From positions 36,953 to 100,952 of the forward strand of contig JAUJMU010000015.1 in assembly GCA_030446715.1 (NCBI GenBank): a stretch of 64,000 nucleotides of DNA, in the 5' to 3' direction. The notes below the pieces were generated by a model. The model ran no database searches. It saw nothing but the letters and a program-made list of their open reading frames with translations, and was not told the origin of the DNA. Every line of letters starts with the position of its first letter. The stretch's first letter is position 1. Both the position numbers and the translations under genes were made by a program. Below are positions 1,976 to 49,579 of this stretch, in pieces. This DNA comes from Cytophagales bacterium. Lineage in GTDB: Bacteria > Bacteroidota > Bacteroidia > Cytophagales > 172606-1.

Positions 1976-2280
1976 ATGAAAAGACAAGTATTTGACCAGG
2001 CCTTCAAGCAGATGGCCGTAGAGCTATCTCATGCCAGGGGATCAGTAAAAACAGCGGCCGCCGAGTCAGGAATCGATCCGGGTAGAATCAGTAAATGGAG
2101 ACAGCACCAGAATGGTAGTGTAGCTGTAAGTGAGAAGCCAAGCCTTTCAGCCGAACAAATAGAAATCAGGCGTTTACAGAAGTAGTTGAAGGAGGCCCAG
2201 CCAGAAAGAGATATTCTGGACCCGATGCTGACAACGTCTGCTGGTCCAAAAAGGCGGTCAGCATCTTTTCCAGGGGAGTC
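1976..2280 (+). pseudogene. IS3-family OrfA (HTH) fragment, decayed
   Basis: MKRQVFDQAFKQMAVELS...IDPGRISKWRQ is a typical IS3 OrfA HTH. There is an in-frame TAG at 2183-2185 (QK*LKEAQPERDIL), then a ~30-nt insertion before KKAVSIFSRG. No OrfB follows. Confidence 0.65.
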
Positions 2281-2486
2281 CACACCTGTACTGACATTCC
2301 TACCTGTACTCGGTTATTAGTCACATCATATAATTCCATCCGCTCATAGAGAATCTCATATCGTTCCCTAGAAATTTGCTCTATCCTTGATTCAATTTCT
2401 TGCAGGAGTTGAGACCGTACTTCCACTCCTTTCCGGTCATAAACATAGAGCATAGCTGCTGCACCACTTATTTCATCTTCATATAA
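2281..2486 (-). pseudogene. 3' portion of a cassette ORF split by the IS4-family insertion and truncated by the IS3 fragment
   Basis: Reads in frame with 3819-4064 once the IS (2487-3818) and one copy of the 6-bp duplication are removed (...ALTSLY|EDEISGAAAMLYVYDRKG...). The listed ORF 2166-2624 is a chimera that runs into IS sequence on both sides. Confidence 0.5.
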
Positions 2487-3818
2487 CAATAGTCCGTACA
2501 GTTTTAGGCAAGAGTTAGCAGCAAGGAGGCAGGCTAAAGGAGCAGTAAAAAGAAAAAGGTCGTAATGTTGAGGTGCGACACTTAACAAAACGACCCATGG
2601 GCATCCAAGGGATACTTGCCTCAATAATGAGCAAACTTTCCGGCGTAAACAAATGGCAAAGGAATTTCATGGTAGAAGTATTTAGCGTACTATTTTGCCG
2701 ACAGGGCAAAGCCACCTTTGAGAATCTGGCCCGCTATTCAAAGTACAATGAGTTGACGTTTCGCAGAGGGTTTAGTAAGTATTTTGACTGGCTGGGGTTT
2801 AACGTGCAGTTCATTGACTGGTCCAGTGGGGTTTTTATTGGAGTAGTGGATTGCAGTTTTGTGGGCAAGAGTGGAAAAAAGACTTACGGACTGGACAAGT
2901 TCTGGTCGGGGAGTGTAGGAAAAGCCGTCAAGGGTCTAGAAGTGAGTGTAGTAGGCTGCATCAATGTAAATTTGAAGCAAACCTTTGTCCTGGAAGCCAG
3001 TCAAACTCCCGCTGGCTTAGCCACCAAGGACGAAAAGGGTTATAGCCGAGTAGATTTCTATATGGAACAATGGCTGGACTGCTTACCATCTCTGGCACCG
3101 ATAGTCTACTTTGTCGCCGATGGATTTTAAGCCAAAGAGAAAATGTTTTCTGCTTTTCAAAAAGCGGGTAAACATTTGATTACCAAACTCCGTTTGGATG
3201 CGGCCTTGTACTACTTGTGGGACGAACCCCGAAAAAAAGGGCAGCGCGGCCCTTCGCGGAAGTATGCGGGTAAAGTATCCTTTTCCCAGGTAAGCTCCTG
3301 GCAGTATGTAGGGCAAGATCAAAAGTATCCTTATCTCGAAGTTTACTCGCAGCGGCTCTATTCCAAACACTATCAACGTACCCTGCTGGTGGTCTTAGTG
3401 CGTAATACCAAAACCAATCAGTATATCTTATTGGCTTCTGCTGACCTTACCCAGAATGCCCGCCAGATAGTCGAGTATTATCAACTACGGTTTCAACCCG
3501 AATTCATTTTCCGGGATGCTAAACAATTCATGGGACTCACCCAGTGTCAGGCCCGTGATCAAGACAAGCTAGACTTTCACCTCAATCTCTCGCTAAGTGC
3601 CGTCAATCTGGCCCGAGTAGCTTTACAGGAGGACAAGTCCTACGCCAACTCCATGAATGCCTTTATCCGAAGACAAACCAACCTGCACATTGCCCGACTC
3701 ATTTACGAGCAACTTAGCCCTGCTACCTCATTTGACCTGATGCAAGACAACTCTCTTAATCTTCAGTTTTGGCCCAATAAGGCCGCTTAACTTATTCTAT
3801 AATCTGTACGGACTATTG
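2487..3818 (+). mobile_element. Complete IS4-family insertion sequence (1332 bp) with 6-bp target site duplication
   Basis: Terminal inverted repeats CAATAGTCCGTACAG at 2487-2501 and, as reverse complement, 3804-3818 (15/15, with a weaker match further in). Flanking direct repeat ATATAA at 2481-2486 and 3819-3824. One transposase frame lies inside. Confidence 0.85.
2573..3790 (+). pseudogene. IS4-family DDE transposase with an in-frame TAA stop
   Basis: ORFs 2573-3130 and 3143-3790 are in the same frame, separated by TAA at 3128-3130 (..YFVADGF*AKEK.., Tyr codon expected). IS4 signature Y-x2-R-x3-E-x6-K is seen in YQLRFQPEFIFRDAK. Confidence 0.8.
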
Positions 3819-4064
3819 ATATAAAGAAGTTAAAGCAATTAGAATCGTTTGCTCAACACTCGGATGAGGATACTGACGTAATCCAACCACAGTATCTAAT
3901 TGATCTTCTAACTCAAAAGTATATGTCTCCCACTGCTCGTTAGCTTGAATGTCAATATATAGTGCTCCGCATTGCCTTGATTCCTCCTGGATTAATTTCA
4001 AGTGCTGAAGCATTTGGGTAACAAGTGCTTGATCTTCAATGAAAGTCCTGTTATTCATCTTCAT
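3813..4064 (-). pseudogene. 5' portion of a small cassette ORF (unknown function) interrupted by the IS
   Basis: ATG at 4064 lies 3 nt after the attC-like R' box (GTTGGCAATAATG on the minus strand). The last two codons plus the stop come from the IS end. AT-rich. Confidence 0.55.
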
Positions 4065-4068
4065 TATT

Positions 4069-4165
4069 GCCAACGCATCAAATACCCCCGCAGACCGTGT
4101 GCTCATGCTTTGGCTTTGCGGTGGGGCGCACCGGTTGTCGGCGGGTGTGGTGTTGGGCGTTAGTC
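4069..4165 (-). repeat. attC-like imperfect palindrome (same family as 42063-42154)
   Basis: Minus strand reads ACTAACGCC...GCCGACAACCGGTGCGCCCCACCGCAAAGCCAAAGCATGAGCACACGG...GATGCGTTGGC. About 48 central nt match the 42063-42154 element with ~4 mismatches. It starts at the stop codon of ORF 4164-4580. Confidence 0.65.
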
Positions 4166-4580
4166 ATTTGTTTTCTAATACTTCACTCACTACTTCTAAC
4201 CGGGATATGGGCCAATAAATATATTCTCCGATTATCCTTTTATCATTGGTCCAGTCACCAAGATTAAGTTTAAAATCACCAAAGTTGGCAATCACAGGAT
4301 TTATCCCTTCAATTTGCCCGTAACCAACGTATTCACCTGACTTTGAGCCTTTTTTAAGTTTCTTTTCCCGTTTTGCATTCAGCGAGAAAGTTGCCTCCCA
4401 ACTGAATCCAGAACTGAGTTCTGCTAACTCAATAATTCTTTCATCTCCTATTGTGAAATCTGCGCCCCAGAAATAAGCATCATAGCTTTTACCTGATTGT
4501 GTTTCAAAATGCACTACGCCTTCAAATCGATCGGTCAAATCAATCCCTGTTATCCGGACATTAACTTCGGTCGCTTTCAT
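4164..4580 (-). CDS. hypothetical protein (cassette-type ORF, AT-rich)
   Basis: 138-aa intact ORF with ATG start and AT-rich composition unlike the flanks. An attC-like element follows immediately. No family recognised. Confidence 0.6.
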   Translation of the reverse strand: MKATEVNVRITGIDLTDRFEGVVHFETQSGKSYDAYFWGADFTIGDERIIELAELSSGFSWEATFSLNAKREKKLKKGSKSGEYVGYGQIEGINPVIANFGDFKLNLGDWTNDKRIIGEYIYWPISRLEVVSEVLENK

Positions 4581-4852
4581 TTTTTGTTCCGATTACGCCC
4601 AACATACATACACACACAACCTTCCCATCCCCAACTGTGTGTATTTCCACTAAGCGGATACACACAACTCTCCTGCCGGAAAGAAAATGAACGGCAGATG
4701 TGATTGCTGCCAGTAAAGTAACGGTAAGACCGGTACTCCACAAGCTGTAAACCATTTTTAATTTCTGCCGGGCCCCTGCGCCGGAGACTGCCCCGGCAGG
4801 GCCGCAACGCTTCCTCCCAAACTCCGTACCTTTGCCAAAAACCAGCTGCCTC

Positions 4853-20212: not shown

Positions 20213-21241
20213 TTACCGGTTTTTTGTACTTGATGTATGTTGCTCAAAAATACGAAGGTATTCATCTCCGATTTGCCGGGCTGAGTGCTTGCTCAGGTGC
20301 TCCGCCGCCGGCAGGCGGTATTGTTGCAGCGAACCCGGGTTAGTGAGCAGGAGGCTCAGCTTTTCCGCCAGTTCGCGGGCATCGCCGTTTTTAAAAGTAA
20401 GACCGCAGGGTCCGATGGCTTCCGGCAAACCGCCGCCTTCCGAACCCACCACCACGCAGCCGCAGGCAATTGCTTCAAGGGCCACTACGCCGAAAGGTTC
20501 TTTCCAGCGGGAGGGCACCACCATGATCCGGTGCCGGTTCAGCAGCCGGATCAGGTCTTCGCCGGTGACGGTGCCGGTAAAGGTCACTTGGTCTTCCAGA
20601 CCGTACTGACGGGTCAGTTGCTGCAAAGTTTCCTTTTCCGGGCCTTCACCCGTAATTGTGCACCGGAAGGTCAGCCCCCTGGCCTTTACCTCCTTCAGCG
20701 CCTCCAGCAGCAGATCGGCGCCTTTGTCGGATACCAGCCGTCCCAGAAATACAAATTCGCGGTCCGGCGTGATGCCTTCTATTTTACGGAAAACCGGCCG
20801 GTAAGGATTAGGTACAATATGACATTTTGCCGGAATGTGTCCGGCAATGGCCTTACTGATGGCGATGTTCTGCGCAAACCGGCACACCAGCAGTTTGAGC
20901 CGGTCCTGCCAGCCGGTACTGCCGTCGGTGCGGCGGTACCAGGTGTGGTGCGTAACAAACAATGTGCGCCGAACCCGCAGCAGCGGCCATAAGGCTTTCA
21001 TGCTGATACAGGCCTGATAATAAACTTCGCACCAGCGGGTCAGGTCCGGCAGTTGCGATCCGGACGGATTCCGGATAACCTGAAAAGGAAAGCTATTGTC
21101 GCTACCGTTGCGCGCTGCCGTTTCCGTCACCACCTTTACCTCGTGCCCCCCTTCCGCAAACTGGTGGGCAAGGGTGAGTACCACGGTTTCCATGCCGCCC
21201 ACACTGGGGTAAAAAAGGGTAGAATACATCAGTATTTTCAT
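20213..21241 (-). CDS. Glycosyltransferase family 4
   Basis: N-terminal MKILMYSTLFYPSVGGMETVV and C-terminal VVPSRWKEPFGVVALEAIACGCVVVGSEGGGLPE. Confidence 0.85.
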   Translation of the reverse strand: MKILMYSTLFYPSVGGMETVVLTLAHQFAEGGHEVKVVTETAARNGSDNSFPFQVIRNPSGSQLPDLTRWCEVYYQACISMKALWPLLRVRRTLFVTHHTWYRRTDGSTGWQDRLKLLVCRFAQNIAISKAIAGHIPAKCHIVPNPYRPVFRKIEGITPDREFVFLGRLVSDKGADLLLEALKEVKARGLTFRCTITGEGPEKETLQQLTRQYGLEDQVTFTGTVTGEDLIRLLNRHRIMVVPSRWKEPFGVVALEAIACGCVVVGSEGGGLPEAIGPCGLTFKNGDARELAEKLSLLLTNPGSLQQYRLPAAEHLSKHSARQIGDEYLRIFEQHTSSTKNR

Positions 21242-21278
21242 GGCTTTTCAGGTCAGATACAGAGGCGGTTCAGGCTTT

Positions 21279-22424
21279 TCAGGAAAGAATAGCCTGGTAA
21301 CTTTCGGCTATCTTCTCCCAGCTCAGCCGGTTGCTGTAGGTTTCGGCGGTGCCGGCCTGCAGCTTTTTCCGCAACGCTTCGTCCTGCACAATCTTACGGG
21401 CATTTTCGAGGGTGGTCTGGTAATCGCCTTCCCGGGCCAGCAGTGCATTTACCCCGTTCCGGAAGAAGTCGTCGGTCATGTGGCCGGCGGTGCCGATCAC
21501 CGGAAGGCCGGCCGCGTAAGCCGCTGCCAGCGAACCGCTTTTAGTGGTAAGGCCGCCGCGTTTTTCCTCCAGCAGGATAAAGGCATTGCCGCAGGAAAGC
21601 ACCTCAAACAGCCGGTCACTGGGCAGATAACCCGTTACCACCACCCGGTTTTCCAGCCCCAGGTCTCCGATCTGCAGGTTGAGCCGCTGGATGGCCGCTC
21701 CGCTCAGGTTACCCAGCAGCAGAAGTTTTACCGGCAGGCCCTCCTTTACAAGGTCGTCAATCACCTTCACGGCTGCTTCCTGATCACGGATGCCGAACGA
21801 AACAAAAAGAAACTCGCCGTCGGGTGCATACTGCCTTTTCAGCTCAAACAGCCGGAGGGGCGAAAGCGTTACCGGAACAATGTTGCTGCCGATGGGAATG
21901 CGGGTGATCTTGCCGCGCAGTAGCCCCAGTTGACGCCTGGTACGGGCTATGCTTACAATAACGCGGTCGGCCAAAGCCCCGATGGCGTAGGCAATCACCC
22001 GCTGCCCTACGGCTACCGGCCAGTATTTAGCTGATTTCCACTCCAGGTCAATGAATATTTCGTGACAGGTAACGGCCACGCGGTAGCCTTTCAGCTTCAG
22101 CCGGGCCAGCAGCAGACAGAACCAGAAGGGCAACCCGTAGTAGTTGTATGAGTAGGGCACGTACTGCGGAATCACCCAGTCAGGTTTTATTTCGTCGAGC
22201 AGCTTGGTAATAGTGACAATGGCAGTCCGGTCCCAGTTGCTGATCAGAGGGAGTACTTTCAGCAACGGTTCTTCCAGCGCAAACCGCCTGATTTCTTCCT
22301 TACGGGAACAGATTACGTAAACCGTGTGTCCTGCCTTTGCCAGTTGCTTTCCTGCGTGATACGTATAATCGCCTACCCCGTCAACAACGGGTGGAAAATT
22401 ATCCGCGATAAAAAGTAGTTTCAT
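21279..22424 (-). CDS. Glycosyltransferase family 4-like
   Basis: MKLLFIADNFPPVVDGVGDYTYH N-terminus and GT-B-type C-terminal half. Start set at MKLLF. Confidence 0.8.
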   Translation of the reverse strand: MKLLFIADNFPPVVDGVGDYTYHAGKQLAKAGHTVYVICSRKEEIRRFALEEPLLKVLPLISNWDRTAIVTITKLLDEIKPDWVIPQYVPYSYNYYGLPFWFCLLLARLKLKGYRVAVTCHEIFIDLEWKSAKYWPVAVGQRVIAYAIGALADRVIVSIARTRRQLGLLRGKITRIPIGSNIVPVTLSPLRLFELKRQYAPDGEFLFVSFGIRDQEAAVKVIDDLVKEGLPVKLLLLGNLSGAAIQRLNLQIGDLGLENRVVVTGYLPSDRLFEVLSCGNAFILLEEKRGGLTTKSGSLAAAYAAGLPVIGTAGHMTDDFFRNGVNALLAREGDYQTTLENARKIVQDEALRKKLQAGTAETYSNRLSWEKIAESYQAILS

Positions 22425-38441: not shown

Positions 38442-38876
38442 ATGCAGCCCTATTTTTCCCTCACGTTTCATTCCCTGAAAGAAATTTCTTTCGTAGCCAA
38501 ACTCATCCTCCGGCTGGCCGATAACCATAAAATATGGGTGCTGGAAGGAGACATGGGGGCCGGTAAAACAACGCTTGTCAAGGCAGTGTGCAGCCAGCTG
38601 GGTGTGGACGATACCGTGCAGAGTCCTACCTACAGCCTGGTAAATGAATACCGTACCTTCAGGGGCGAACCCTGCTACCACTTTGATTTTTACCGGATAA
38701 AGGACGAAGCCGAAGCCATGGACATCGGTGTAGAGGAGTATTTTGACTCCGGTAACTTCTGTTTTATCGAGTGGCCCGGCAAAATTCCTAACCTTTTGCC
38801 CGAACGTTATTTAAAAATTAATATTAATTTAGATAGTGAGAATGCCCGTACTTTACAACTGAGCAAGTATGAGTAG
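38442..38876 (+). CDS. tsaE: tRNA t6A37 biosynthesis ATPase TsaE
   Basis: P-loop GDMGAGKTT and SPTYSLVNEY motifs. Start set at MQPYFSLTF. Confidence 0.9.
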   Translation: MQPYFSLTFHSLKEISFVAKLILRLADNHKIWVLEGDMGAGKTTLVKAVCSQLGVDDTVQSPTYSLVNEYRTFRGEPCYHFDFYRIKDEAEAMDIGVEEYFDSGNFCFIEWPGKIPNLLPERYLKININLDSENARTLQLSKYE

Positions 38877-40098
38877 CACCAGGCTGCAATCCGGAGTGAA
38901 GGAGCTGGCAACCCAGACCTCCTTGTATCCGCAGGAAAAAATGCTGGAGGTAAGGACGGGCCACCAGGAGTTGCTGATCGGCATTCCGAAGGAAATCAGT
39001 GATTACGAAAACCGGCTGGTGCTTACCCCGGAGGCTACCTCCATTCTGGTGCGCAACGGCCACCGGGTCTGCATCGAAACGGGGGCCGGTGATGCCGCCA
39101 AGTTCAGCGACCACGAGTACAGCGATGCCGGAGCCCTGATCGTGTATTCGGCCAGAGAAGCTTTTGAAGCCGACATCGTGCTGAAGGTAGAGCCACCCAC
39201 CCTGGAGGAAATCGGCTACATGAAGCCGGGCAAGACGCTGATCTCCGCCCTGCAGATGGCCAAGCTGACGGGTGAATTCGTGCAGGCGATCAACGACAAG
39301 AAACTGATTGCGCTGGCCTTCGAACTGATTCAGGACAAAGTGGGCGGGATGCCGGTCGTGCGGGCCATGAGCGAAATTGCCGGCAGCACCGTCATGCTCA
39401 TTGCCGCCGAGTACCTCAACAGTGCCAACAGCGGCCGGGGCATCATTCTGGGCGGCATCACGGGCGTACCACCCACTAAGGTGGTAATTCTGGGCTCGGG
39501 CACGGTGGCAGAGTACGCGGCGCGTACCTCGCTGGGCCTGGGTGCCGAAATCAAAATCTTCGACAAGCACATTTACCGCCTGCGCCGCCTCAAGTACGTG
39601 GTCGGCCAGCAGGTATACACGTCCACCATTGATACCAACGTACTGAGCGAGGCCATCAGGCGGGCCGATGTGGTGATCGGGGCCATCCGGGCGGAAGACG
39701 GGCGGAGTCCGTGCGTGGTGACCGAGGAGATGGTTGCGGGCATGAAGCCTGATTCGGTGATCATTGACGTGAGCATTGACCAGGGCGGCTGCTTTGAAAC
39801 TTCCGAGCTGACCACGCACCGCAAGCCAGTATTCAAGAAGTACGGCGTAATCCATTACTGCGTACCCAACATTGCCGCCCGGGTAGCCAGTACCGCTACG
39901 CAGGCCCTGAGCCATATTTTTACCCCCTACCTGCTGGAAATCGGCTCATCGGGAGGCATTGAAGAGATGATCTTCAAGAACAAATGGCTGATGAAAGGGG
40001 TGTATTCCTACAAGGGCAGCCTGACCAATGCGCCCATTGCCCGAAAGTTCAACATGAAGCACAAAGACCTGAACCTGCTGATGGCGGCGCGGCTGTGA
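38869..40098 (+). CDS. Alanine dehydrogenase / PNT-family NAD-binding dehydrogenase
   Basis: ..IPKEISDYENRLVLTPEA.. N-terminal domain and a Rossmann GxGxxA (VVILGSGTVAEYAA). 8-nt overlap with tsaE. Confidence 0.8.
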   Translation: MSSTRLQSGVKELATQTSLYPQEKMLEVRTGHQELLIGIPKEISDYENRLVLTPEATSILVRNGHRVCIETGAGDAAKFSDHEYSDAGALIVYSAREAFEADIVLKVEPPTLEEIGYMKPGKTLISALQMAKLTGEFVQAINDKKLIALAFELIQDKVGGMPVVRAMSEIAGSTVMLIAAEYLNSANSGRGIILGGITGVPPTKVVILGSGTVAEYAARTSLGLGAEIKIFDKHIYRLRRLKYVVGQQVYTSTIDTNVLSEAIRRADVVIGAIRAEDGRSPCVVTEEMVAGMKPDSVIIDVSIDQGGCFETSELTTHRKPVFKKYGVIHYCVPNIAARVASTATQALSHIFTPYLLEIGSSGGIEEMIFKNKWLMKGVYSYKGSLTNAPIARKFNMKHKDLNLLMAARL

Positions 40099-40207
40099 GC
40101 CGGGTGTCAGAATTGGTTCTGGTATAGGGCAGATAAACGACATATGTCGTAGTTACAAGTGTTGGCACAAATTTTAAAAATATCTAGACTTAAATATTAA
40201 ATTTAAA

Positions 40208-41482
40208 ATGAGAAATGTTTTATTAGTTAGTTTATTATTACTAAGCTATTTCAGTTATTCACAAAATAGTAGAACTACAATGTTAAATAGTAGAACTACA
40301 ATATTAATAGGTCTCGACGGTTTCAGATGGGATATTTTAGACAGAGAAAATGTCTCAACTTCTAATTTGAGAGAAATTCGTAAGAACGGAGTTCGTTCTA
40401 AATTAATCTCAAGAATTCCATCATTATCTTTCCCCAATTTATATACTTTGGTAACTGGATTAAATCCAGAAAACTCAGGTATTGTATCTAATGAAACATA
40501 TTTACCAAAGGAGAATACTTTTTTCTCAAACAAATCATTTAAAGAATCCAAGTGGTTTCAAGGAGAACCAATTTGGGTTACTGCAGAGAAACATAAGATT
40601 ACCACAGCTACTATGTTTTGGATTGGTTCTGATGCAAAAATAAAAGGATTCTCACCTACATATAGTCACGAGTTTAACGTTAAAAAATGGAACCCTAATT
40701 CAAGAGCACAAGAGGTTTTAAGATGGTTATCACTCGAAGAAAATAAACCAGAATTCATTACTCTTTACTTTGATGAAGTTGATAATGCAAGTCAAGATTT
40801 TGGAATTGGTTCTGATGAAGAAAAAAAGGCAATTGAAGTAGTTGATGAGGCTATTGGAATACTAATTAAAGGACTTAAAGAAAAAGGATTGTGGGAACGC
40901 ATTAACATTGTTGTTGTTGCAGACCACGGCATGACCGAAACAAGTCAGGACAAAGTAATTTATTTGGATGATTACATCAATACAAAAAGTCTAGATGTAT
41001 TTGCTTTCAACAACCATCCATATTTTACCTTTAGCGATGCTAATTGTGTAAATAATTGTGATTCGATTTATTCTAAGTTAAAAATTGCACATCCAAAATT
41101 ACAAGTTTATAAACGAGAAGACCTTCCAAAAAGATTTCATAGAAAAAATAGTGACCGTCTTGGGGATTTAAGCCTTCATCCAGATTTGGGCTGGGTTGTA
41201 ACGACTCATCAGTTATTTAATGAAACTCTAAAAGGAAAACCGTTTTCAAATAATGAAATAACATATAATGGAGGGTTTATGAAAGCAATACACGGTTATG
41301 ACAGTAAGTATGAAGATATGTATGGAATATTTTTAGCTATGGGTCCATATATTAAAAAAGGAACAGAAATTGAGCCATTTGATAATATCAATGTTTATTC
41401 ATTACTATGTAAAATGCTAAAAATCAAGCCAGCTAAAAATGATGGTTCAATTAAAGTGTTTGAGAAAATTGTCACTTATTAA
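40208..41482 (+). CDS. Ectonucleotide pyrophosphatase/phosphodiesterase (ENPP, alkaline-phosphatase superfamily), secreted
   Basis: LIGLDGFRWD and ..PSLSFPNLYTLVTGLNPENSGIVSN.. motifs plus a signal peptide. Very AT-rich. First ORF of the island. Confidence 0.85.
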   Translation: MRNVLLVSLLLLSYFSYSQNSRTTMLNSRTTILIGLDGFRWDILDRENVSTSNLREIRKNGVRSKLISRIPSLSFPNLYTLVTGLNPENSGIVSNETYLPKENTFFSNKSFKESKWFQGEPIWVTAEKHKITTATMFWIGSDAKIKGFSPTYSHEFNVKKWNPNSRAQEVLRWLSLEENKPEFITLYFDEVDNASQDFGIGSDEEKKAIEVVDEAIGILIKGLKEKGLWERINIVVVADHGMTETSQDKVIYLDDYINTKSLDVFAFNNHPYFTFSDANCVNNCDSIYSKLKIAHPKLQVYKREDLPKRFHRKNSDRLGDLSLHPDLGWVVTTHQLFNETLKGKPFSNNEITYNGGFMKAIHGYDSKYEDMYGIFLAMGPYIKKGTEIEPFDNINVYSLLCKMLKIKPAKNDGSIKVFEKIVTY

Positions 41483-41616
41483 TTAAGTATACTTACTTTT
41501 TAGTTACTGAATTAGTGTCAATCAAATTTTAGAATGTATTCTCAATTAAGTATGAAGAAATACGAACTCATCGTATAAGTATTTCTGTAAAAAAGATATT
41601 TATAAAGAAAAAACTT

Positions 41617-41686
41617 TAGCCAACAATATGTAAACGCCAGCATCGGCCGATGGCCTCGCCACCGCTTACACGAGAGCGTTATATGC
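41617..41686 (+). repeat. attC-like element (short, divergent member)
   Basis: ..CCAACAATATGTAAACG..CATCGGCCGATG..CGCTTACACGAGAGCGTTATATGCC. TGTAAACG pairs with CGCTTACA, the centre is a 12-nt palindrome, and the 3' end has a GTTAT box. Confidence 0.4.
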
Positions 41687-41736
41687 CAGCATGAGGAAAG
41701 AGGCTCAACTCATAGCCGACGCACGAACCGGGCCAA

Positions 41737-41828
41737 GCATATAACACTGTCCACGCCGCCACTGGGCCACTGACCCACGGGGCCAACTGATGGGCCCTTG
41801 CAGCGGGTGGCCTTGGTCCGTTATGGGC
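41737..41828 (+). repeat. attC-like element
   Basis: GCATATAACACTGTCCACGCCGCC...GCAGCGGGTGGCCTTGGTCCGTTATGGGC. The ends match the family consensus. Confidence 0.6.
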
Positions 41829-42062
41829 AACCGAAGAAGAAACACGTTTGGCGTGACGAGAAGAGGCAGGTGAAGTCGAAAAGTGCCTAGCCCAAAGAGC
41901 AGAATCAACGGTTGCATAACCAAACAAGGCTGACGCAAGGAAGTATGGCAGGCAGTCAACAGCTGAATCAAAAAGACGTTTGGCGACCCGGAACAACGTT
42001 GTAAAGAGACCACGAAAGCCGACAGTCAGCGAAAGAATGATAAATTGAAAGGAAAGGGTTTA

Positions 42063-42154
42063 CCCATAACACTGCTCACGCCGACCACCGGTGCGCCCCA
42101 CCGCATAACCAAAGCTTGAGCACACGGCGTCGGGTGGGCTTGCTCCGTTAGCTA
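42063..42154 (+). repeat. attC-like element
   Basis: CCCATAACACTGCTCACGCCGACCACCGG...CGGCGTCGGGTGGGCTTGCTCCGTTAGCT. The next ATG (42157) follows the GTTAGCT box by 3 nt. Confidence 0.7.
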
Positions 42155-42156
42155 GC

Positions 42157-42699
42157 ATGGAAAATAAATGGCGCATATCAAATCAAGTGAGATTGAAAAA
42201 CATAATATTATTCATACAGCTGTTTGCCTGCGTATGTTGTGCCAAAAAACAGCAAGGAACATCTAATGGAAGCCCGGAAGAAACCATCAGAACAACTACC
42301 GAATCGCTGAAAGCTGATAAAAAAGATTATGATAGTTATCTGATGAGAGGAGTAGCCTACAAAGAATTGGGGAAACTGAAAGATGCGCTCAGCGATTACA
42401 ATAACGCTATTAAATTTGCTTCTGCTTCTGATGATGAGTTTGCCCGGCATTCGTTAGTTGAAGCATATAATATGAGAGGCAGTTTATATAATCGATCCGG
42501 CCGTAAAGATGAAGCCTTGTTGGACTATGACAAGGCAATCGAGTTGAATCCGAAAAACGATTATGCGTATTATCACAGGGGGATCATGAGGGTAGAAATG
42601 GGACAATCCGAACTTGGATGTGCAGATCTCAAAAAGGCCAGTGAAATACTGCCCGTTGTTGATATATACAATGATGCTTTGGAGGAGTACTGTAAATGA
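42157..42699 (+). CDS. TPR-repeat lipoprotein
   Basis: Hydrophobic leader ending ..LFACVCC, then three or four TPR units (..YLMRGVAYKELGKLKDALSDYNNAI.., ..YNMRGSLYNRSGRKDEALLDYDKAIELNP..). Confidence 0.8.
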   Translation: MENKWRISNQVRLKNIILFIQLFACVCCAKKQQGTSNGSPEETIRTTTESLKADKKDYDSYLMRGVAYKELGKLKDALSDYNNAIKFASASDDEFARHSLVEAYNMRGSLYNRSGRKDEALLDYDKAIELNPKNDYAYYHRGIMRVEMGQSELGCADLKKASEILPVVDIYNDALEEYCK

Positions 42700-42931
42700 T
42701 TCTATCCTTTTGAAGGAGCTCAGTCCAGGCGTAGGCGGGAGTATTTGTGCCTTTCCGTTTTGCAAGGGTCTGAGTTTAATCCCCTGCCAATGTTGTTTTT
42801 ACCAATAACTTGACCGTTGGTGAAGACGGCAACCACCACTGATGAAAATAGAATCATTTTAATTGGAGCAGTGATTTGTATTCCCCTTCTTGTCGCTGAT
42901 AAAGTAGGGATAAAAGAATAAGGAATCACGC

Positions 42932-43024
42932 TAGCTAACACCAGCCACGACCGGTCACTGGCCCGCCTCACCGCATAGCCAAACAGAAGTGCACAGCGCC
43001 GGGTGGCTTCGGTCCGTTATGGCC
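42932..43024 (+). repeat. attC-like element
   Basis: TAGCTAACACCAGCCACGACCGG...CACCGCATAGCCAAAC...GCGCCGGGTGGCTTCGGTCCGTTATGGCC. The centre is homologous to 42063-42154. Confidence 0.7.
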
Positions 43025-43039
43025 AATTAATAAAAAAAT

Positions 43040-44320
43040 ATGCGTTTTCTTATCCTACTATTGTGGCTACTAGTTTGGTTATTTCCATCAGATGAAACTC
43101 TGATTAGAGATGCACTAGCTTCAAAAACAACTTTGTTGACAACTATAGAACCAGGATCGGAAACAAATGATTTACAATTTCTTTCAGTTCTTCTAAAAGA
43201 TAAGCGAATAATTTCTCTCGGAGAAGCTACTCATGGTACAAGTGAGTTTTTCAAAGCCAAACACCGGTTGCTAGAATACTTAGTTGAGCAGGAAGGGTAC
43301 CGTTTATTTGGCATTGAGGAGAACTTTGCCTTGTGTAGCTTATTAAATGCCTACGTGTTGCATGGTAAAGGAGAAGCTAAACAACTACTAACTTCTCTCT
43401 ATGTGTGGCCCTGGCAAACCCAAGAGGTACTGGCAATGATAAATTGGATGAGAGCCTATAATATTAGACAATTAAACGCTAATGAAAAGATTAAATTCTT
43501 TGGGATTGATATGCAGCAAGGATACGATGCAATGGAAGAACTAAAGACCTTTTTTAAGTTAACAGACCAGGATTTTTATCAGACCTTGGTTGCCAGCAGT
43601 CCTTCAATAGCTAACAAACAAGAAAAAATCATGTATGTAGCGGACTCTGCTACTATAGAAAAGATAGACTTTGTTTTACAAAAGAACAAAAATCATTACC
43701 AATCTTTAACCTCCGAGAAAGCATGGCAGCTTTCTTTACAACATGCCAATATCCTGAGGCAACACTACCAGATGCGGAAGGCATATGATAAAGTTAAACA
43801 AGGAAAAGTTTCCTACCGGCAACTAACTCAAAGCCGGGACAGCTCGATGGCCATCAATGTAAAATGGATTTTAGATCAAGAGGGGCCAAACAGCAAAATA
43901 GTGTTGTGGGCTCATAACGCACATATTTCCCAAGGAGGTTATCCCGGTTACAAAGATGCCTCGATGGGTTCTTATTTAAAAAGGATTTATGGCAAACAAG
44001 TATATGCGATTGGGTTTGACTGCCTGGCAGGTACTTATACTGGTTTGGGAGGAAGTCCGCGTAAGCTGGGTGTACAAACCTTACCAACAGTAGAAAAAGG
44101 CAGTTTTACAGATATAATCAATCAACTAAATAAGCCAATTGTATATATTGATTTCAAAACAGCAACAGCAGATACATTGTTAAATAAGTGGTTAGAAAGC
44201 CCTCAAACCATCCGCTATCATGGAAGTACTGCTACAGGTATATTGCCTAATTGTTTTGATGCAATGATCTTCATTAGAAATACGACTGCCACTAAACCGC
44301 TATACCCAATTGATAAATAA
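43040..44320 (+). CDS. Erythromycin esterase (Ere) family protein, secreted
   Basis: Hallmark ..ISLGEATHGTSEFF.. motif of the Ere family (PF05139-type). 426 aa with an N-terminal signal. Macrolide activity cannot be inferred. Confidence 0.8.
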   Translation: MRFLILLLWLLVWLFPSDETLIRDALASKTTLLTTIEPGSETNDLQFLSVLLKDKRIISLGEATHGTSEFFKAKHRLLEYLVEQEGYRLFGIEENFALCSLLNAYVLHGKGEAKQLLTSLYVWPWQTQEVLAMINWMRAYNIRQLNANEKIKFFGIDMQQGYDAMEELKTFFKLTDQDFYQTLVASSPSIANKQEKIMYVADSATIEKIDFVLQKNKNHYQSLTSEKAWQLSLQHANILRQHYQMRKAYDKVKQGKVSYRQLTQSRDSSMAINVKWILDQEGPNSKIVLWAHNAHISQGGYPGYKDASMGSYLKRIYGKQVYAIGFDCLAGTYTGLGGSPRKLGVQTLPTVEKGSFTDIINQLNKPIVYIDFKTATADTLLNKWLESPQTIRYHGSTATGILPNCFDAMIFIRNTTATKPLYPIDK

Positions 44321-44333
44321 AAAAGAAATGACT

Positions 44334-44427
44334 GGCCATAACACCCTTCTGTCCGACAACCTTGCCTACCTGGGCACAATGATCAGCAAAGGCTACGGTA
44401 TGCGGCAGCAGTCGGTACATTATAGCG
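44334..44427 (+). repeat. attC-like element (3' box degenerate)
   Basis: GGCCATAACACCCTTCTGTCCGACAACC...GCAGCAGTCGGTACATTATAGCGC. GTCCGAC pairs with GTCGG-AC around one unpaired base. The 3' box is ATTATAG instead of GTTATAG. Confidence 0.55.
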
Positions 44428-44455
44428 CATTGGAAACAGACCAAATACTAACCTG

Positions 44456-45367
44456 ATGATAAGATTTATTGCTCTTATTTTTTTTCTGAATAGTTACTTA
44501 ATTTGTTTCGGCCAGCAGAAAAAAGATAAACCGGCTTACAAGAAGATACAGATTCTGTTACTAGGCACGTTCCACTTTCATCAAAGTCTAGACTCTAACA
44601 GTCGTCTCCATTCCAATTTATTTACCGAGAAAAGGCAGCAGGAAGTAGGCGAAATTGTAAGTAATCTGGCAGCATTTGCTCCTGATAAGATTTTCATCGA
44701 ACGCAAGACGAGTGAACAGGCCTATACCGACAGTCTATATGCAGAATATAAAAAAGGCAATGAACCAAAGGATGTAAAAGTACTTGCCAACGAAATTGTA
44801 CAGCTTGGCTTTAAAACCGCTAAGAAACTTAATCTTCCTGCACCAGTATGTGTGGACTTCCGGCCGGAAGGCTACTCAAAACAAGATTATGTCCCTAAAT
44901 ATGAAATGGAGAAGCAGGTTATAGAGATATGGCGGCAATTTGACGACAATGAATTCCGGGAGCTGGGACGCTACGATAACTCATTTCTCGATAAACGACA
45001 TCCGGTCAGGAAAGCTTTTAACGAAGACTCGTTGCTCCAAAAAATAACTTTAAAAGATTTTCTCCTTTTTTTAAATACCTCTGAATCTTATGTAAGAGAT
45101 ACTTACTCCAACTGGAATTGGATGTACGGTATAGGTAAGGACAATGATTACTCAGGCATAGATTGGCTAGCAAACTTTTGGTATGGTCGTAACGCAAAGA
45201 TTTATGGGAATATATTAAGGCAAGTGGATTACCAAAATGATCAGAAGTATCTCCTTATTGTAGGTGCCTCCCACCTTTCGATTCTCAAACACTTGTTTGA
45301 GGAAAACCCGTATTTTGAAGTAGTTGAGGTGAATAAGGCCCTAAAACAGGAGAAAAAAAGAAAATGA
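44456..45367 (+). CDS. Hypothetical secreted protein (TraB/GumN- or DUF5694-like)
   Basis: Signal peptide and the ..ILLLGTFHFHQ.. motif recall DUF5694/TraB-like proteins. The family name is unverified. Confidence 0.55.
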   Translation: MIRFIALIFFLNSYLICFGQQKKDKPAYKKIQILLLGTFHFHQSLDSNSRLHSNLFTEKRQQEVGEIVSNLAAFAPDKIFIERKTSEQAYTDSLYAEYKKGNEPKDVKVLANEIVQLGFKTAKKLNLPAPVCVDFRPEGYSKQDYVPKYEMEKQVIEIWRQFDDNEFRELGRYDNSFLDKRHPVRKAFNEDSLLQKITLKDFLLFLNTSESYVRDTYSNWNWMYGIGKDNDYSGIDWLANFWYGRNAKIYGNILRQVDYQNDQKYLLIVGASHLSILKHLFEENPYFEVVEVNKALKQEKKRK

Positions 45368-45379
45368 AGTAGAAAAACG

Positions 45380-45473
45380 CGCTATAACACCGCACAAAAC
45401 CGACAACTGAGCCGCCTTAGCGCATTGCCTCAGCTTGAGGCTACAGTCGCGGTTGTGCTTGATGCGTTAGCTG
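45380..45473 (+). repeat. attC-like element
   Basis: CGCTATAACACCGCACAAAACCGACAAC...CAGTCGCGGTTGTGCTTGATGCGTTAGCTG. Confidence 0.65.
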
Positions 45474-45506
45474 TTGTTAGAAAGAATAAAAATCGAATAA
45501 ACTGTG

Positions 45507-45610
45507 TTAGGCTGTGTCTGGTGAATCCCCGATCAGGAAGTTTGATGCAATAGGAGGCACTTTTTCGGCCGATTTTACCCTGTGAAATGATTCATCAGAC
45601 ACAGCCTAAG
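45507..45610. repeat. 20-bp terminal inverted repeat pair enclosing 64 bp (MITE-like or long hairpin)
   Basis: TTAGGCTGTGTCTGGTGAAT (45507-45526) versus ATTCATCAGACACAGCCTAA (45591-45610); 19 of 20 nt complementary. Confidence 0.55.
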
Positions 45611-45639
45611 TTGTGACATCAAACCAAAAGATACCAACA

Positions 45640-45883
45640 ATGACAATACAGCAAGAAATAAAAACCAGCTTTCATCATCTGATTGATGAGATAGAAAATG
45701 AGGAATTGTTGAAAAAGGTTTATCATCTGTTGAAAGATTATCCAAAGAGAAAGAAACAGAGGATTTTTGGGATACACTTACAGATAAGCAAAAAGAAGGA
45801 ATAGATTCGGCTTTGAAGGAAAGCGAAGATGAGGATAATTATATTTCCCACGATGAGGTAAAGCAAGAAGCGAAAAATGGCTA
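45640..45883 (+). pseudogene. Putative addiction-module antitoxin with one apparent frameshift
   Basis: MTIQQEIKTSFHHLIDEIENEELLKKVYHLLKDYP continues as KEKETEDFWDTLTDKQKEGIDSALKESEDEDNYISHDEVKQEAKNG* if one A is added to the A3 run at 45744-45746. Its stop overlaps the toxin ATG (ATGGCTAA). Confidence 0.5.
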
Positions 45884-46299
45884 AGCAAATAATTTGGTTA
45901 AAATCCGCCAGAGACAGGTATAAAGCCATTGTAGAATAGTTGAAAGTTGGGTGGTCAGAAAAAGTAGCTGATGAGTTTGTCGGGAAGGTGCATGACAAGT
46001 TAGAACTGTTGAAAATATTTCCCCAGCTTGGAGCAGAGTCAGATAAGAAGAAATTACGAAAATTAGTCCTTTCTCCACACATAGGGCCATCGCACCAAAA
46101 AAAGGGCATTTTTAATGTGCCTTCACAGTATTCAGGTATGCATTATAACGCATGTTGTGCCGAGTTTTCTGGTATTGATTCCCAAAATGGCCAGTTGACC
46201 AAATTATCAACTGTTGTTTGTAGCATTAGAGGCGCTTTTGCCCAAAAATGCCCCAAATTTGATGATGCCTATTTCTCCACACAATATATTGATTTATAG
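45877..46299 (+). pseudogene. RelE/ParE-family toxin with in-frame TAG
   Basis: MAKQIIWLKSARDRYKAIVE*LKVGWSEKVADEFVGKVHDKLELLKIFPQLG...LRKLVLSPH. TAG at 45937-45939 sits where Tyr is expected. The family resemblance fades after ~46090. Confidence 0.55.
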
Positions 46300-46336
46300 T
46301 ATACTGCGGTACATTTTCCCTTTCTGCGTTTTGGAG

Positions 46337-46428
46337 AACCTCACCCCCGGCCCTTCTCCCCGGGAGAGGGAGAAAACCGCGTTGTGGCTCCCCCCTCTCA
46401 TCAGGAGAGGGGGCTGGGGGGTGAGGTT
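46337..46428. repeat. GC-rich compound inverted repeat (same family as 10204-10349)
   Basis: AACCTCACCCCCGGCCCTTCTCCCCGGGAGAGGGAG ... CCCCCTCTCATCAGGAGAGGGGGCTGGGGGGTGAGGTT. Marks the right edge of the AT-rich island. Confidence 0.6.
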
Positions 46429-46495
46429 CAGGATAGAACGTACCCGTAGTATAGATTTATAGAATTAAGGGAGATGTGGACATACTATTGAGCAT

Positions 46496-47725
46496 TTATG
46501 ACAGTAGGCAAAAAGCTGACTGAAATGAATGAAAACAACAGTGAACATCAACTATTCCGGTCAGCGGGCCGCCAACGCCAAAGGCTGACGCTTCGAGCCT
46601 CGCTGCCGTATAGTCATGTTCATTACCAGCAATCGAAGGAGGCTGACCACTTTGATTGATTACCACAATGTAAAATGGCTGACCGTTTATAATGCAGCCA
46701 CACAACAATGGCAATCCAGCCATTCAGCCATCCACCTCTTCACCTCTCAGAATCAGCTCCTGCTGCAGTTGCTTCAGCTCCTGATTCATGATGATGATTT
46801 CATTCTGCAGCACTTCGATCAGGCTGATTCTCCGGTTGATTCCGTAAGGTTATACCTGCCGCCGGGGCCAAAAAGCAGGCGGTTGTTTTGTTCACGCTCC
46901 TCAGTGCCCTCATCATCCAGCAGGTCAAGCTCTTTCCAGCGTTCCAGAATCGTCTCGCGTACCGTCTGGGACTGTTTATCGGGCTCAAATTCCCGCGTGA
47001 GAAAATGCCAGACCATGGGAGGATACACTTTTGAGACCGGGGGATTTTCCTGAATATCGGTCAGGTGGTTGCGCCGGTGGAGGAATTCTGCTTCTTCGTA
47101 CCCCCAGCGCCCGGATGGCCCAGTAGCCGCTCAGTACCGCACCCGCCATGGCCGGTGTTTCAATGTATACATCATCCGCGCCGAAGATGGCCAGCGTTCC
47201 CGACACCACTGTTGACAGGGCACCAGCCAGCACCGAATAAACGGTAAGCCGGGTCACCCGCCGGTCTATTCCCTGTTCGAGGTAGTTTTTCAGTTCATTG
47301 GCCCGGGCCCGCTTCACCTCTATTTCTGCCAGCACCGAAGTCAGTTCCTGCGTGGCCAGCAGGATGTGGTCCGATATTTCCTGCCGGAGGACCAGCAGCC
47401 TGATCCGGTCCGGCTCAGAAGAGTTTTTCTCCAGATCCTGCTGGTCTGCAGCCACGCCGAAAGCACCGCCTCAACGCCGATGTCGGCCGCCACACTCCGC
47501 CCGCTGCGAAAACCGACGCCGGACCGAGGGAAAAAGTGGTATCCGGGTCAGCCGTTCCGTCCAGAGGGAATCAAAATAGACGGCGGCGGGAGGGGTAACG
47601 TAGCAGTAGTTTTCGGCCGTGAAAATAGGCGTTTGCCGGGTGCGGTTTACCCGGCAACCGAACAAACCGGCTGCCATCAGCAGCCAGGCAGCCGCCAGCG
47701 TGAAGCGGGAAATTCTTGCAGACAT
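46496..47725 (-). pseudogene. Lipoprotein gene of unknown function, broken into four or more frames
   Basis: Starts with lipoprotein signal MSARISRFTLAAAWLLMAAGLFGC (ATG 47725). Continues through ORFs 46985-47455, 46819-47028 and a further frame (..LIEVLQNEIIIMNQELKQLQQEL..). Confidence 0.4.
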
Positions 47726-47776: not shown

Positions 47777-47795
47777 CCGTCAATAAATCCGTCAA

Positions 47796-47819
47796 TAAAA
47801 AAGCAGCTCTATAGCTGCT
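47796..47819 (-). terminator. Rho-independent terminator-like hairpin (minus strand)
   Basis: Minus strand reads AGCAGCTATAGAGCTGCT followed by TTTTTT. Lies at the distal end of the AT-rich insert. Confidence 0.5.
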
Positions 47820-48273
47820 CCATTATCGATCAGGATCGGGAATCGGTTATTTTTTCACGGGTCAAACTTCGAAAACCATGCTGCCTGAAATATTGATCGG
47901 CCTCCGCCAGTTTAGTACTGGGTTTCTGTTCCCGCTCCTTTTTGGGGAAGTTTTTTCTCTATTACCCTTGTTTTTGGTGAATGTATCTGCCATAATTCAG
48001 TGAATTTATTTACTCTACCCAGCTATTTTTAAGTCTTGATAATCAAAACGTTGTAAAAAAAGTGACATTTTTCAGTAATAAGATCGGATTCAGGATGGAA
48101 TTTTATCTCCTTTCCCTTCCTGTATGCTGGATAAATGCCCGGATTTCTTCCGGTGAAAGCCAATCTTTCCGCCTTTACTGGTTTTGTAGACAAAGGGAGA
48201 AAAATGAAAACTACGCTGAAAAAATGTAACTACCTGATAATTAGCATTTAAAAAAAGCTGGGTAGAGTAGAAT

Positions 48274-48741
48274 TTATTTAAACAAATGTAGTAAATGAAC
48301 GGGGACTATCAACAGATAGTCATACTTTACATTACTGACAAAATCTTCTGAGATTCCATTGTTAACGCTCAGGATTGTGAATTGGTTTATGAAAGCGGCT
48401 CCGTATTCTCTTACAATTTTGCGGTAAATGTAGCTGCGGGAGCTGGTGCTTCCCTGAACCGCGATGATTTTATCAGGAAAACGATTAAAAAAGAGAGGAA
48501 TGGTCTGTACCACGGTGGCCATTATTTTCTCTCCATCACCATTTTTACTTTCGGCTCTGTCGTCAAAGTCAAGCGTGTTTCCGATACGGTCTCCGAATCC
48601 GAGATTCACAAAGACCGGCAGGGAAGGGAGTTCTTCGTATTTAATCAATTTTTCAATGATCCCTTTCGGGCCATTGCTGTTGAAGCTTAGTGCCCAAAGA
48701 GCAGTTGGTATTTCGTGCGTGTTGTAACTTTCCGAATTCAT
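48274..48741 (-). CDS. Hypothetical protein (DUF6934-like), carried on the thyA-adjacent insert
   Basis: 155 aa from [10 protein letters not shown]... The motifs ..NLGFGD.., ..[18 protein letters not shown].. and ..[11 protein letters not shown].. resemble a Bacteroidota family I recall as DUF6934 (unverified). AT-rich. The listed 353-aa ORF is a read-through chimera with thyA. Confidence 0.55.
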
Positions 48742-48785
48742 TGAAGCAGTAAACTCAAAACTTTGTCCTTTCTTCTGCTTCGGGA

Positions 48786-49579
48786 CTAAACAGCAACTGG
48801 GGCCTTGATGGCCGGGTGCGGATCGTAGTTTTCCAGCCTGAAGTCTCCGTAGGTAAAGCCAAAAATATCTTTCACCGCCGGATTGATCCGCATCCGGGGC
48901 AGGGGGCCGCAATTCCGCGACAACTGTAGTTCTACCTGTTCGAGGTGGTTCAGGTAAAGGTGCGTGTCGCCGCCGGTCCAGATGAATTCGCCGGGCTGCA
49001 GGTCGCACACCTGCGCGACCATCATGGTCAGCAGGGCGTAGGAAGCAATATTGAAGGGAAACACCCAGAAACACGTCGGCGCTGCGCTGGTAGAGCTGGC
49101 AGGAGAGCCGGCCCTCGGCCACGTAAAACTGAAAGAAGGCATGACAGGGAGGCAGGGCCATCTTTGAAACATCGGCTACGTTCCAGGCGCTGACAATCAG
49201 CCGCCGCGAGTCGGGATTGCGCCGGATCTGCCCCACCACATCCGTGATCTGGTCAATAGTTTGGCCGTCCGGGGCGGCCCAGCTGCGCCACTGCTTGCCG
49301 TAGACCGGACCCAGTTCACCGTTGGCATCCGCCATTCATCCCAGATGCTCACGCCGTTTTCCTTCAGGTAGCGGACGTTGGTTTCGCCCTTCAGGAACCA
49401 GAGCAGCTCATGAACGATGGATTTGAGGTGAACTTTTTGGTGGTAACCAGCGGAAACCCTTCCGAAAGATCAAACCGCATCTGGTAACCAAACACACTGA
49501 GGGTGCCGGTGCCGGTACGGTCTTCTTTTCGTACACCACCGGACAAAATATGGCGCATCAAATCGTGGTACTGTTGCAT
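48786..49579 (-). CDS. thyA: Thymidylate synthase, with three apparent homopolymer frameshifts
   Basis: Pieces 49391-49579, the N-terminal part of 48274-49335, and 48786-49172 rebuild a full ThyA ([62 protein letters not shown]). The shifts are at T5 49434-49438, CC 49332-49333 and A3 49059-49061. Confidence 0.9.

Follow-up and report, generated by a model that had tools for sequence, protein, structure and literature searches.

A probable integron-type gene-cassette array in a Cytophagales genome, and a candidate HARP-type recombinase for its site family

The window, i.e. the whole stretch of 64,000 nucleotides analyzed here (Cytophagales bacterium, assembly GCA_030446715.1, contig JAUJMU010000015.1, positions 36,953 to 100,952 of the forward strand), contains, next to an alanine dehydrogenase gene (38869-40098), a run of unrelated accessory genes at 40123-46622 on the plus strand, hereafter array A1, in which hairpin elements resembling the attC sites of integrons recur. 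An earlier note had described six such elements in one orientation and had taken the region for a set of attC sites clustered without an integrase (CALIN). All six are present where it had placed them, and the CALIN reading is borne out by the presence of at least two attC sites (seven in A1) and by tblastn, which found no tyrosine recombinase in the window. The count of six was too low, as A1 consists of seven cassettes and a second small array, A2, lies at 4.6-2.2 kb. Furthermore, an attI-like site, which had been thought unrecognizable, was recognized at 40123-40161 by comparison with other genomes.

Measured from the outer R'' to the crossover base, the sites e1-e6 are 64-88 nt long after refinement. 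Five of them, together with seven sites of a related genome, make up the 12-sequence seed of a covariance model of the family, R1, namely e2 at 41736-41820 (70 bits with R1), e3 at 42061-42147 (96.5 bits), e4 at 42930-43016 (89.5 bits), e5 at 44333-44419 (56.8 bits) and e6 at 45379-45466 (88.7 bits). The terminal site, e7 (46537-46622), is outside this training set and was matched by R1 at 46537-46633 with 41 bits. The GTT core that had been ascribed to R' is correct for most of the sites, but in e5 and e7 the crossover lies between A and TT, so that the triplet is ATT. Site e1 (41615-41678) is of a shorter and different type that R1 does not detect, and its sole support is complementarity at the boundary, its R' GTTATATGC being the reverse complement of the R'' of e2, GCATATAAC.

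The genes between the sites were annotated with Pfam, and the cassettes were compared with those of L001, a contig of the assembly GCA_030448035.1. Cassette 1 (40162-41678, including e1) carries a type I phosphodiesterase (ENPP-type) open reading frame (ORF) at 40208-41482 (PF01663, 270 bits); its start, TTGGC, is complemented by the R'' of e1, GCCAAC, and it is absent from L001. The phosphodiesterase gene has a 21-bp tandem duplication (two copies of AAATAGTAGAACTACAATGTT) at 40264-40305, close to its 5' end. Cassettes 2 (41679-41820, 142 bp, including e2) and 3 (41821-42147, 327 bp, including e3) are ORF-less, and both are absent from L001, cassette 3 at that position. The R' of e2, GTTATGGG, complements the R'' of e3, CCCATAAC. 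Cassette 3, which may encode a small RNA or a peptide, is 77.5% identical to positions 1049-1370 of L003, a contig from another metagenome and environment. L003 was binned as Coleofasciculus, probably wrongly. The proposal that each element sits 3' of one plus-strand ORF thus fits some of the sites, while others follow ORF-less spacers.

Cassette 4 (42148-43016, including e4) is the first that is shared with L001, and its ORF (42157-42699) matches Pfam TPR families. Cassette 5 (43017-44419, including e5) encodes a protein of the erythromycin esterase family (ORF 43040-44320; PF05139, 189 bits), and its start TTATGGCCA complements the R'' of e5, TGGCCATAAC. In cassette 6 (44420-45466, including e6), the ORF at 44456-45367 belongs to DUF5694 (PF18950, 144 bits), and the start TTATAGCGC is likewise complementary to the R'' of e6, GCGCTATAAC. 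Cassette 7 (45467-46622, including e7) holds a decayed ParDE-type toxin-antitoxin pair, with a frameshifted antitoxin from 45640 and a ParE from 45877 that is interrupted by an in-frame stop and a 190-bp insertion; ParE_toxin (PF05016) was identified with 38.8 bits on the consensus of L001 and the window. Complementarity between the R'' of e7, CAACAGTGAAC, and the cassette start, TTAGCTGTTG, extends here to 9 of 11 positions. Of the gene labels given earlier, phosphodiesterase, TPR, erythromycin esterase family and ParE were recovered, while a TraB/GumN-like protein was not, the gene in question being the DUF5694 one.

The state of two of these genes differs between the assemblies. The esterase gene is intact in the window and split in L001 (16618-17900), while the antitoxin gene is intact in L001 (19193-19471) and frameshifted in the window (45640-45885); the cause is either decay of the cassette genes or indel errors in both assemblies. 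Cassette 7 has also received two later insertions, neither of which is found in L001. The one at 46082-46271, the 190-bp insertion within the ParE-like gene, is bounded by a 12-bp direct repeat (TTTCTCCACACA) and may be a small non-autonomous mobile element. The other, at 46300-46449, is a G+C-rich palindromic element with arms at 46336-46368 and 46397-46429, of the GGAGAGGGG/CCCCTCTCC type. A 21-nt inverted repeat (45507-45527 and 45589-45609, 95% complementary) that lies upstream of the antitoxin ORF may serve as the operator or promoter region of this toxin-antitoxin pair.

Between the crossover base and the ATG that follows it, where 3-30 nt had been given earlier, distances of 10, 24, 37 and 47 nt were measured, and one of 174 nt in the toxin-antitoxin cassette, which has the only long leader. 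With regard to base composition, the cassette ORFs have a G+C content of 31-40% and the attC sites one of 53-64%, as had been judged by eye; the flanks average 51-52%, with individual 1-kb windows between 48 and 60%, for which "well over half" was a little generous. Per kilobase, G+C is 34-44% across 40-46 kb and 47-60% around it.

Comparison between near-identical genomes revealed that the cassettes turn over. The alanine dehydrogenase is residue-for-residue identical on L001, and the two sequences agree at 99.8% up to 40173 and again, at 99.3%, over the stretch that begins with the TPR cassette and ends with the toxin gene. Between these lies a variable block, with three cassettes (1.95 kb) in the window and seven others (4.4 kb) in L001. 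At its right junction, identity begins at TTAGCTAGC, directly after the G/A of the R' core, while the attC hairpins upstream differ. The left junction is at the platform GTT: both genomes share the sequence through GTGTTGGCAC, and both first cassettes begin with TTGGCAC. A read-assembly contig of the A1 locus ends at 40163, the end of the platform GTT, which is where an end is expected if variants diverge in a population. Variation in the proximal part together with conservation in the distal part is what an array growing at its attachment site classically shows. The comparison with a related strain that had been proposed earlier turned up a replacement of cassettes, with its junctions at TT.

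The boundaries of the cassettes follow a simple rule. The 7 nt that follow RTT in one site recur as their reverse complement ahead of AAC in the next site downstream, as exemplified in the window and L001 by GTTAGCGG with CCGCTAAC, GTTGGCAGC with GCTGCCAAC, and GTTATGGCCA with TGGCCATAAC. Measured on 101 family members aligned to R1, 78 consecutive pairs of sites scored on average 6.12 out of 7 (49 perfect, 66 with at least 6), compared to 2.60 for random pairings and 2.70 for the two ends of one site. In 16 arrays, a partner of the R'' of the first attC was found upstream with at most one mismatch, and a platform-like site precedes most of them. Since each cassette carries both halves of one site, it looks like a circle opened between R and TT. 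The rule itself is strand-symmetric, so the side of the crossover comes from the comparison of strains. This model-anchored pair statistic took the place of a family-agnostic chain finder, which looked for AAC...GTT hairpins whose R' complements the next R'' and which in three versions was either too strict or returned many false chains in shuffled DNA.

The same 101 sequences were used to characterize the site family. Read from 5' to 3', a site comprises a variable outer R'', an invariant AACACC, a 6-bp helix, a bulge of 1-2 nt, CC, a 5-nt internal loop closing on an invariant A, a 7-bp helix whose returning strand has a bulged A, the terminal loop and, on the return arm past GG and the other strand of the 6-bp helix, TTGNTNC and lastly the G (60) or A (38) that precedes TT. 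AAC is found in 99 of 100 aligned sites, and at the R' core 60 have GTT and 38 have ATT; the R' G (column 106, A in 38% of sites) is thus less conserved than in classical attC sites. Bulges occur on both arms, i.e. at columns 21-22 of the 5' arm and at A75 and C105 of the 3' arm, and the terminal loop (columns 48-62) contains positions that are at least 95% conserved (C-G-C-A .. C .. C). Compensatory changes were seen in 12 of the 15 predicted pairs already in the 12-sequence seed, and in all 15 in the larger alignment. In the latter, 90.9% of the modelled cells form a standard pair, compared to 61.9% in shuffles and 32-50% with slid partners, and double changes were found in 395 cells against 129 in the control. 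One-sided changes such as G-C to G-U are rare, and this scarcity of G-U intermediates fits a pairing that is needed at the DNA level. Searched over the window with filters off (128 kb of searched strand), R1 gave eight matches, all inside A1 and A2 and none elsewhere. The repeat is accordingly not a scattered one, which speaks for recombination sites and not for generic repeats. No Rfam family matched anywhere in the window at gathering thresholds, and no T-run was seen in the sequence after the stems.

The attI-like platform of A1 (40123-40161, plus strand) begins 25 nt past the stop codon of the alanine dehydrogenase gene and consists of TATAGGGCAGATAAAC, an inverted repeat (GACATATGTC), a spacer, and the crossover between G at 40161 and TT at 40162-3. 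Identity with L001 passes through it and ends a few bases beyond the GTT. The start of A1, TATAGGGCAGATAAACGACATATGTCGTAGTTACAAGTG followed by TT, is almost the same as the head of an array without a recombinase gene in the metagenome-assembled genome (MAG) YX2bin28 (L020), and the platform is close to sites just downstream of the recombinase genes in L111 and L116. In ten Bacteroidota loci, a platform lies 100-250 nt downstream of a recombinase gene, or of the SSB gene adjacent to it, and takes the form TATAnnnGAAATAnAC, an inverted repeat, and TAT..CA..TG directly before TT, at which the first cassette begins. A simple platform pattern, TANNNNNNARATAMAC, was not significant on its own and was replaced by a model, R2, trained only on these ten recombinase-proximal platforms. 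The two best matches of R2 in the window are the platforms of A2 and A1, each ending on GTT, and R2 also finds five other heads of recombinase-less arrays. The window hence holds two "satellite" arrays, with attachment platforms that have no enzyme gene. So many orphan attI-like platforms are unusual.

Array A2 is located on the minus strand, from 4648 to about 2166. Its platform (4603-4648) is composed of GGAAATACACACA, an inverted repeat, and then GTATG before TT, with the crossover G at 4603; it is the best match of R2 in the window (4601-4655, 25.4 bits, E 0.063) and resembles the sites of L023 and L013. The first cassette (4074-4602) contains a 138-aa ORF (4580-4164), for which a Pfam search gave no match, and an attC at 4161-4074, which R1 matched at 4063-4161 with 84 bits although it is outside the training set. 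The boundary rule applies here as well, as the cassette start TTGGGCG complements the R'' of this attC, CGCCCAAC. The second cassette (2166-4073) has an ORF from 4064 that is broken by an insertion sequence at about 2490-3815, with inverted ends CAATAGTCCGTACAG and fragments of a DDE transposase (PF13546 and PF01609). A cassette in L021 matches its 5' part with 82.8% identity; no terminal attC was found for this second cassette. Elsewhere in the window, an AT-rich insertion of about 1.0 kb with a DUF6934 gene (47777-48786) lies directly 3' of thyA (48786-49579, minus strand). At each of its two edges, about 45 bp of L001 align, suggestive of a target duplication. The thyA gene is itself spread over three frames, through either frameshifts or assembly errors.

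By employing tblastn with IntI1 and the HARP-type recombinase described below as queries (E <= 1e-3), we found no tyrosine recombinase in the 64 kb or in L001. The IntI1 query was 100% identical to the annotated intI1, and over 22 loci and the window it found no IntI-like gene besides the HARP-type recombinase. That recombinase is known from other genomes. A tyrosine recombinase gene lies directly upstream of seven R1-family sites, and in the same direction, in a Sphingobacteriales MAG (L010), and a homologue is followed by twelve such sites in the complete genome of Rhodocytophaga rosea (CP048222, L023). More distant members (40-45% identical) in L025, L026/27, L029 and L041 have downstream arrays of other hairpin families, 57-220 nt long, which obey the same cassette rule. 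In two loci, an SSB gene adjoins the recombinase gene (L025 9607-9948; L026 11676-12038), and in L026 it stands between that gene and the attI-like platform. When the recombinase alignment was used to scan metagenomes, the matches listed were mostly core-only relatives; of these matches, only L030, L031, L041 and L055 are full-length, and only L041 has a clear array. The far end of the R. rosea array also bears a second, shorter tyrosine recombinase gene on the minus strand (20935-21791), which is 38% identical to the core and has no HARP part in the stretch examined.

The homologues are 530-600 aa long, with the catalytic residues present, a SAM-like domain, and an IntI-like KSPLD motif at the C-terminus. 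Their core is 33-36% identical to IntI1. The additional domain of IntI is absent from all 14 aligned members, which show a gap of about 38 residues opposite IntI1 207-250. With the integron integrase model TIGR02249 they score 183-221 bits, in two stretches and below the cut-off of 265, and thus fall outside IntI. With NF040815 (XerA), the full-length members reach 225-235 bits against a cut-off of 220, i.e. the core passes narrowly. A fold search gave XerA and VchIntIA as the best structural matches, a result dominated by the catalytic core, in which the N-terminal modules were not reported. The first 310 residues or so consist of three repeats, each of which is beta-beta-alpha-beta-beta-alpha in an AlphaFold2 model (pLDDT 85-92). 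Pfam HARP (PF07443) scores them at 25.3, 25.3 and 21.4 bits, that is, at the threshold of 25, and a profile of 41 repeats retrieved the HARP domain of SMARCAL1 (4o66, E 3.1e-5) as the only significant match in the PDB. HARP is a structure-specific DNA-binding module.

The system is widespread in Cytophagales and Sphingobacteriales. R1 identified 80 sites in 18 loci of such genomes. A degenerate pattern of the attC family, scanned over one genome per species, gave 20 stretches, two of them probably due to chance; the rest belong to one Cytophagales MAG (9 loci), Rhodocytophaga aerolata (5), a Sphingobacteriales MAG (4), a further Cytophagales MAG, and a short contig assigned to a cyanobacterial bin.

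As a whole, these data are best explained, and we hold this with good confidence, by 40123-46622 being the gene-cassette array of an integron-type site-specific recombination system, with a HARP-type recombinase as its enzyme in trans. That A1 is an integron-type cassette array is very probable from its architecture and from the comparative evidence: covariation, the cassette rule, and the replacement between 99.8%-identical genomes with junctions at TT all support the earlier proposal that attC sites here bound mobile cassettes. The assignment of the enzyme is reasonably likely, given what is found in other genomes; we infer that it acts in trans, as the recombinase is known from those genomes and not from the window. 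The term integron holds by architecture, not by strict family membership, because the recombinase found beside the same attC family and platform scores below the integron-integrase cut-off. In the proposed mechanism, the seven cassettes are stacked head to tail behind the attI-like platform beside the alanine dehydrogenase gene, each with a TT start, usually one ORF, and a hairpin attC ending in G or A, and each represents the linear form of a small circle opened between R and TT. New cassettes would enter at the platform and leave by recombination between two attC sites; the recombinase catalyzing these reactions would act in trans, from a gene located elsewhere in the genome. For this role, the best candidate is the tyrosine recombinase of 530-600 aa, in which an Xer/IntI-like core is joined to a SAM-like domain and, at the N-terminus, to three HARP-like domains. 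The sites presumably act as folded single strands, the HARP-like domains may be what reads the folded DNA, and the cassettes are probably expressed by read-through from upstream. We also have a slight preference for the view that this is a lineage of integron-like systems in its own right, carried by Cytophagales, Sphingobacteriales and related Bacteroidota, whose recombinase has three HARP-like modules in place of the IntI additional domain and sometimes a dedicated SSB, and in which one enzyme serves in trans many short arrays at scattered attI-like landing pads, the window containing two satellite arrays of this kind.

Several observations weigh against this explanation. The recombinase is absent from the 64-kb window, four of its close homologues all come from assemblies other than that of this species, and the link between recombinase and array is drawn from about ten loci, several of them in MAGs. 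Recombination at this locus is deduced from comparing sequences. The platform of A1 is a weak match window-wide (13.5 bits, E 6.8), although for a position named in advance the corresponding value is about 5e-5. Folding single sites as DNA, a check that had been suggested earlier, gave energies mostly no better than those of shuffles (z -0.04 to -1.6, with e7 at -4.7 and the bottom strand of e6 at -2.6 as exceptions), and it is consequently the covariation that carries the claim of a structure. Moreover, R-L spacers of 3 and 7 nt and bulges on two arms depart from classical attC geometry, for which real class 1 sites read from plasmids were used as reference.

The last point bears on one alternative, under which A1 would be a CALIN of the usual kind, left from a classical integron that has its canonical IntI, with the additional domain, elsewhere in the genome or has lost it, and the HARP-type recombinase would be a bystander. 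Ends of the classical AAC...GTT kind, lengths of 64-88 nt, one site per ORF end and a single orientation are what such a fragment would have, and reviews do list classical integrons in some Bacteroidota (PMC8618304). We nonetheless regard it as unlikely, since in independent genomes the HARP-type recombinase gene is directly followed by the same attC family and platform, and since IntI1, searched against 22 loci and the window, retrieved no IntI-like gene other than that recombinase. IntegronFinder surveys also report almost nothing in Bacteroidetes proper (PMC9024848), and the geometry of the sites and their conserved loop are unlike the classical ones. R1 does not detect class 1 attC sites (at most 9.6 bits).

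If the hairpins were instead repeats of the REP (repetitive extragenic palindrome) or terminator type, and the two genomes differed through homologous recombination between copies, one would expect much of what is seen in the individual elements: copies 65-90% alike, G+C-rich and positioned after ORFs, with unremarkable folding energies. Such repeats would hardly be confined to two arrays in 64 kb, and neither a T-run nor an Rfam match accompanies the stems. Homologous recombination, furthermore, does not predict that cassette starts complement the outer arms (6.1/7 vs 2.6/7), nor that the left junction of the variable block falls at the platform, which has only GTT in common with the hairpins; we therefore consider this very improbable. 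Still less credit is given to the idea that the elements are ends or remnants of miniature inverted-repeat transposable elements, or structured RNA elements such as stabilizers of 3' untranslated regions, that flank accessory genes by chance. The insertions at 46082-46271 (with its 12-bp direct repeat) and 46300-46449 do indicate that small mobile DNAs are active here, but no terminal inverted repeats or target duplications were seen around the cassettes, the near lack of G-U intermediates argues against selection at the RNA level on one strand, and the cassette rule and the AAC/RTT cores fit the core sites of a tyrosine recombinase.

The definition of integrons has rested on a single family of enzymes, IntI with its additional domain, and the Bacteroidota have been treated as almost without them. 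In IntegronFinder surveys, Bacteroidetes had only In0 elements and, later, one complete integron, in Salinibacter (PMC9024848), and a 2024 preprint places Bacteroidota among the clades previously found without integrons. In the searchable literature, the coverage of which is incomplete, we found no description of cassette arrays with a HARP-fused recombinase. If the view of a separate lineage is right, standard finders, which require the additional domain, would label the present system as CALIN or miss it, which could explain the "nearly integron-free" phylum. Should the proposed explanation be true, the same cassette logic would operate across a large environmental clade in which the recombinase is built differently and the landing pads are many and dispersed, and the range and diversity of cassette-based gene capture would have been underestimated. 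The need for the IntI additional domain in hairpin-site recombination could then be tested against a natural counter-example, and the HARP-type module would be a candidate reader of folded recombination sites. The locus is variable between strains, with junctions between 40161 and 40162, where activity could be sought in existing read sets.

Compared to known recombinases, the candidate enzyme is like IntI (TIGR02249; VchIntIA, 2a3v) in its SAM-like domain, in a core that ends in KSPLD, and in having its gene beside a platform and an array. It differs in about 310 extra N-terminal residues, i.e. the three HARP-like domains, and in lacking the additional domain, which is given as necessary for IntI activity by Messier & Roy 2001, as cited in PMC4889954. 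By profile and fold, its core is nearest to archaeal XerA (5hxy, 4a8e) among the Xer recombinases. XerCD acts on the folded single-stranded attachment site of the CTX phage, and Xer can join a folded single strand to a duplex site (PMC3442271). Unlike Xer, the candidate has no apparent dif-type context, carries HARP-like repeats, and occurs beside cassette arrays, with dozens of hairpin sites per genome. Its gene, unlike that of IntI, points towards the cassettes and not away from them. In integrons of the Treponema denticola type, the integrase gene has the same direction as the cassettes. Together with the archaeal integrons (Ghaly et al. 2022, PMC9668308), these resemble the present system in a recombinase transcribed towards the array and in their occurrence outside Proteobacteria, but they encode an IntI with the additional domain.

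Lastly, the arrays themselves are most readily compared to sedentary chromosomal integrons and CALINs (IntegronFinder; Cury et al. 2016, PMC4889954; Neron et al. 2022, PMC9024848). Both have head-to-tail cassettes with mostly one ORF and short or no 5' leaders, AAC...GTT hairpin sites in which structure is kept over sequence, crossover before TT, and cassette starts complementary to the cassette's own site. Unrelated accessory genes including a toxin-antitoxin pair, variation next to the platform, and no integrase in the window are further points of agreement. The sites differ from classical attC in R-L spacers of 3 and 7 nt as opposed to 5 and 6, in AACACC and TTGNTNC beside the cores, in 38% ATT crossovers and in a conserved loop motif; the classical arrangement, in which two bases of the bottom strand are extrahelical on the R''-L'' arm and the loop varies, is not found here. 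The host clade is one where integrons are reported to be nearly absent. Integron cassettes can also insert at secondary, or attG, genomic sites far from the integrase gene. The array heads described here differ from such insertions in sharing a conserved platform of 40-55 nt, not just GTT. Finally, in contrast to sedentary integrons and CALINs, these arrays begin with an attI-like platform though they lack an integrase gene in their vicinity, and one genome has many loci of this platform-plus-array kind dispersed in it.

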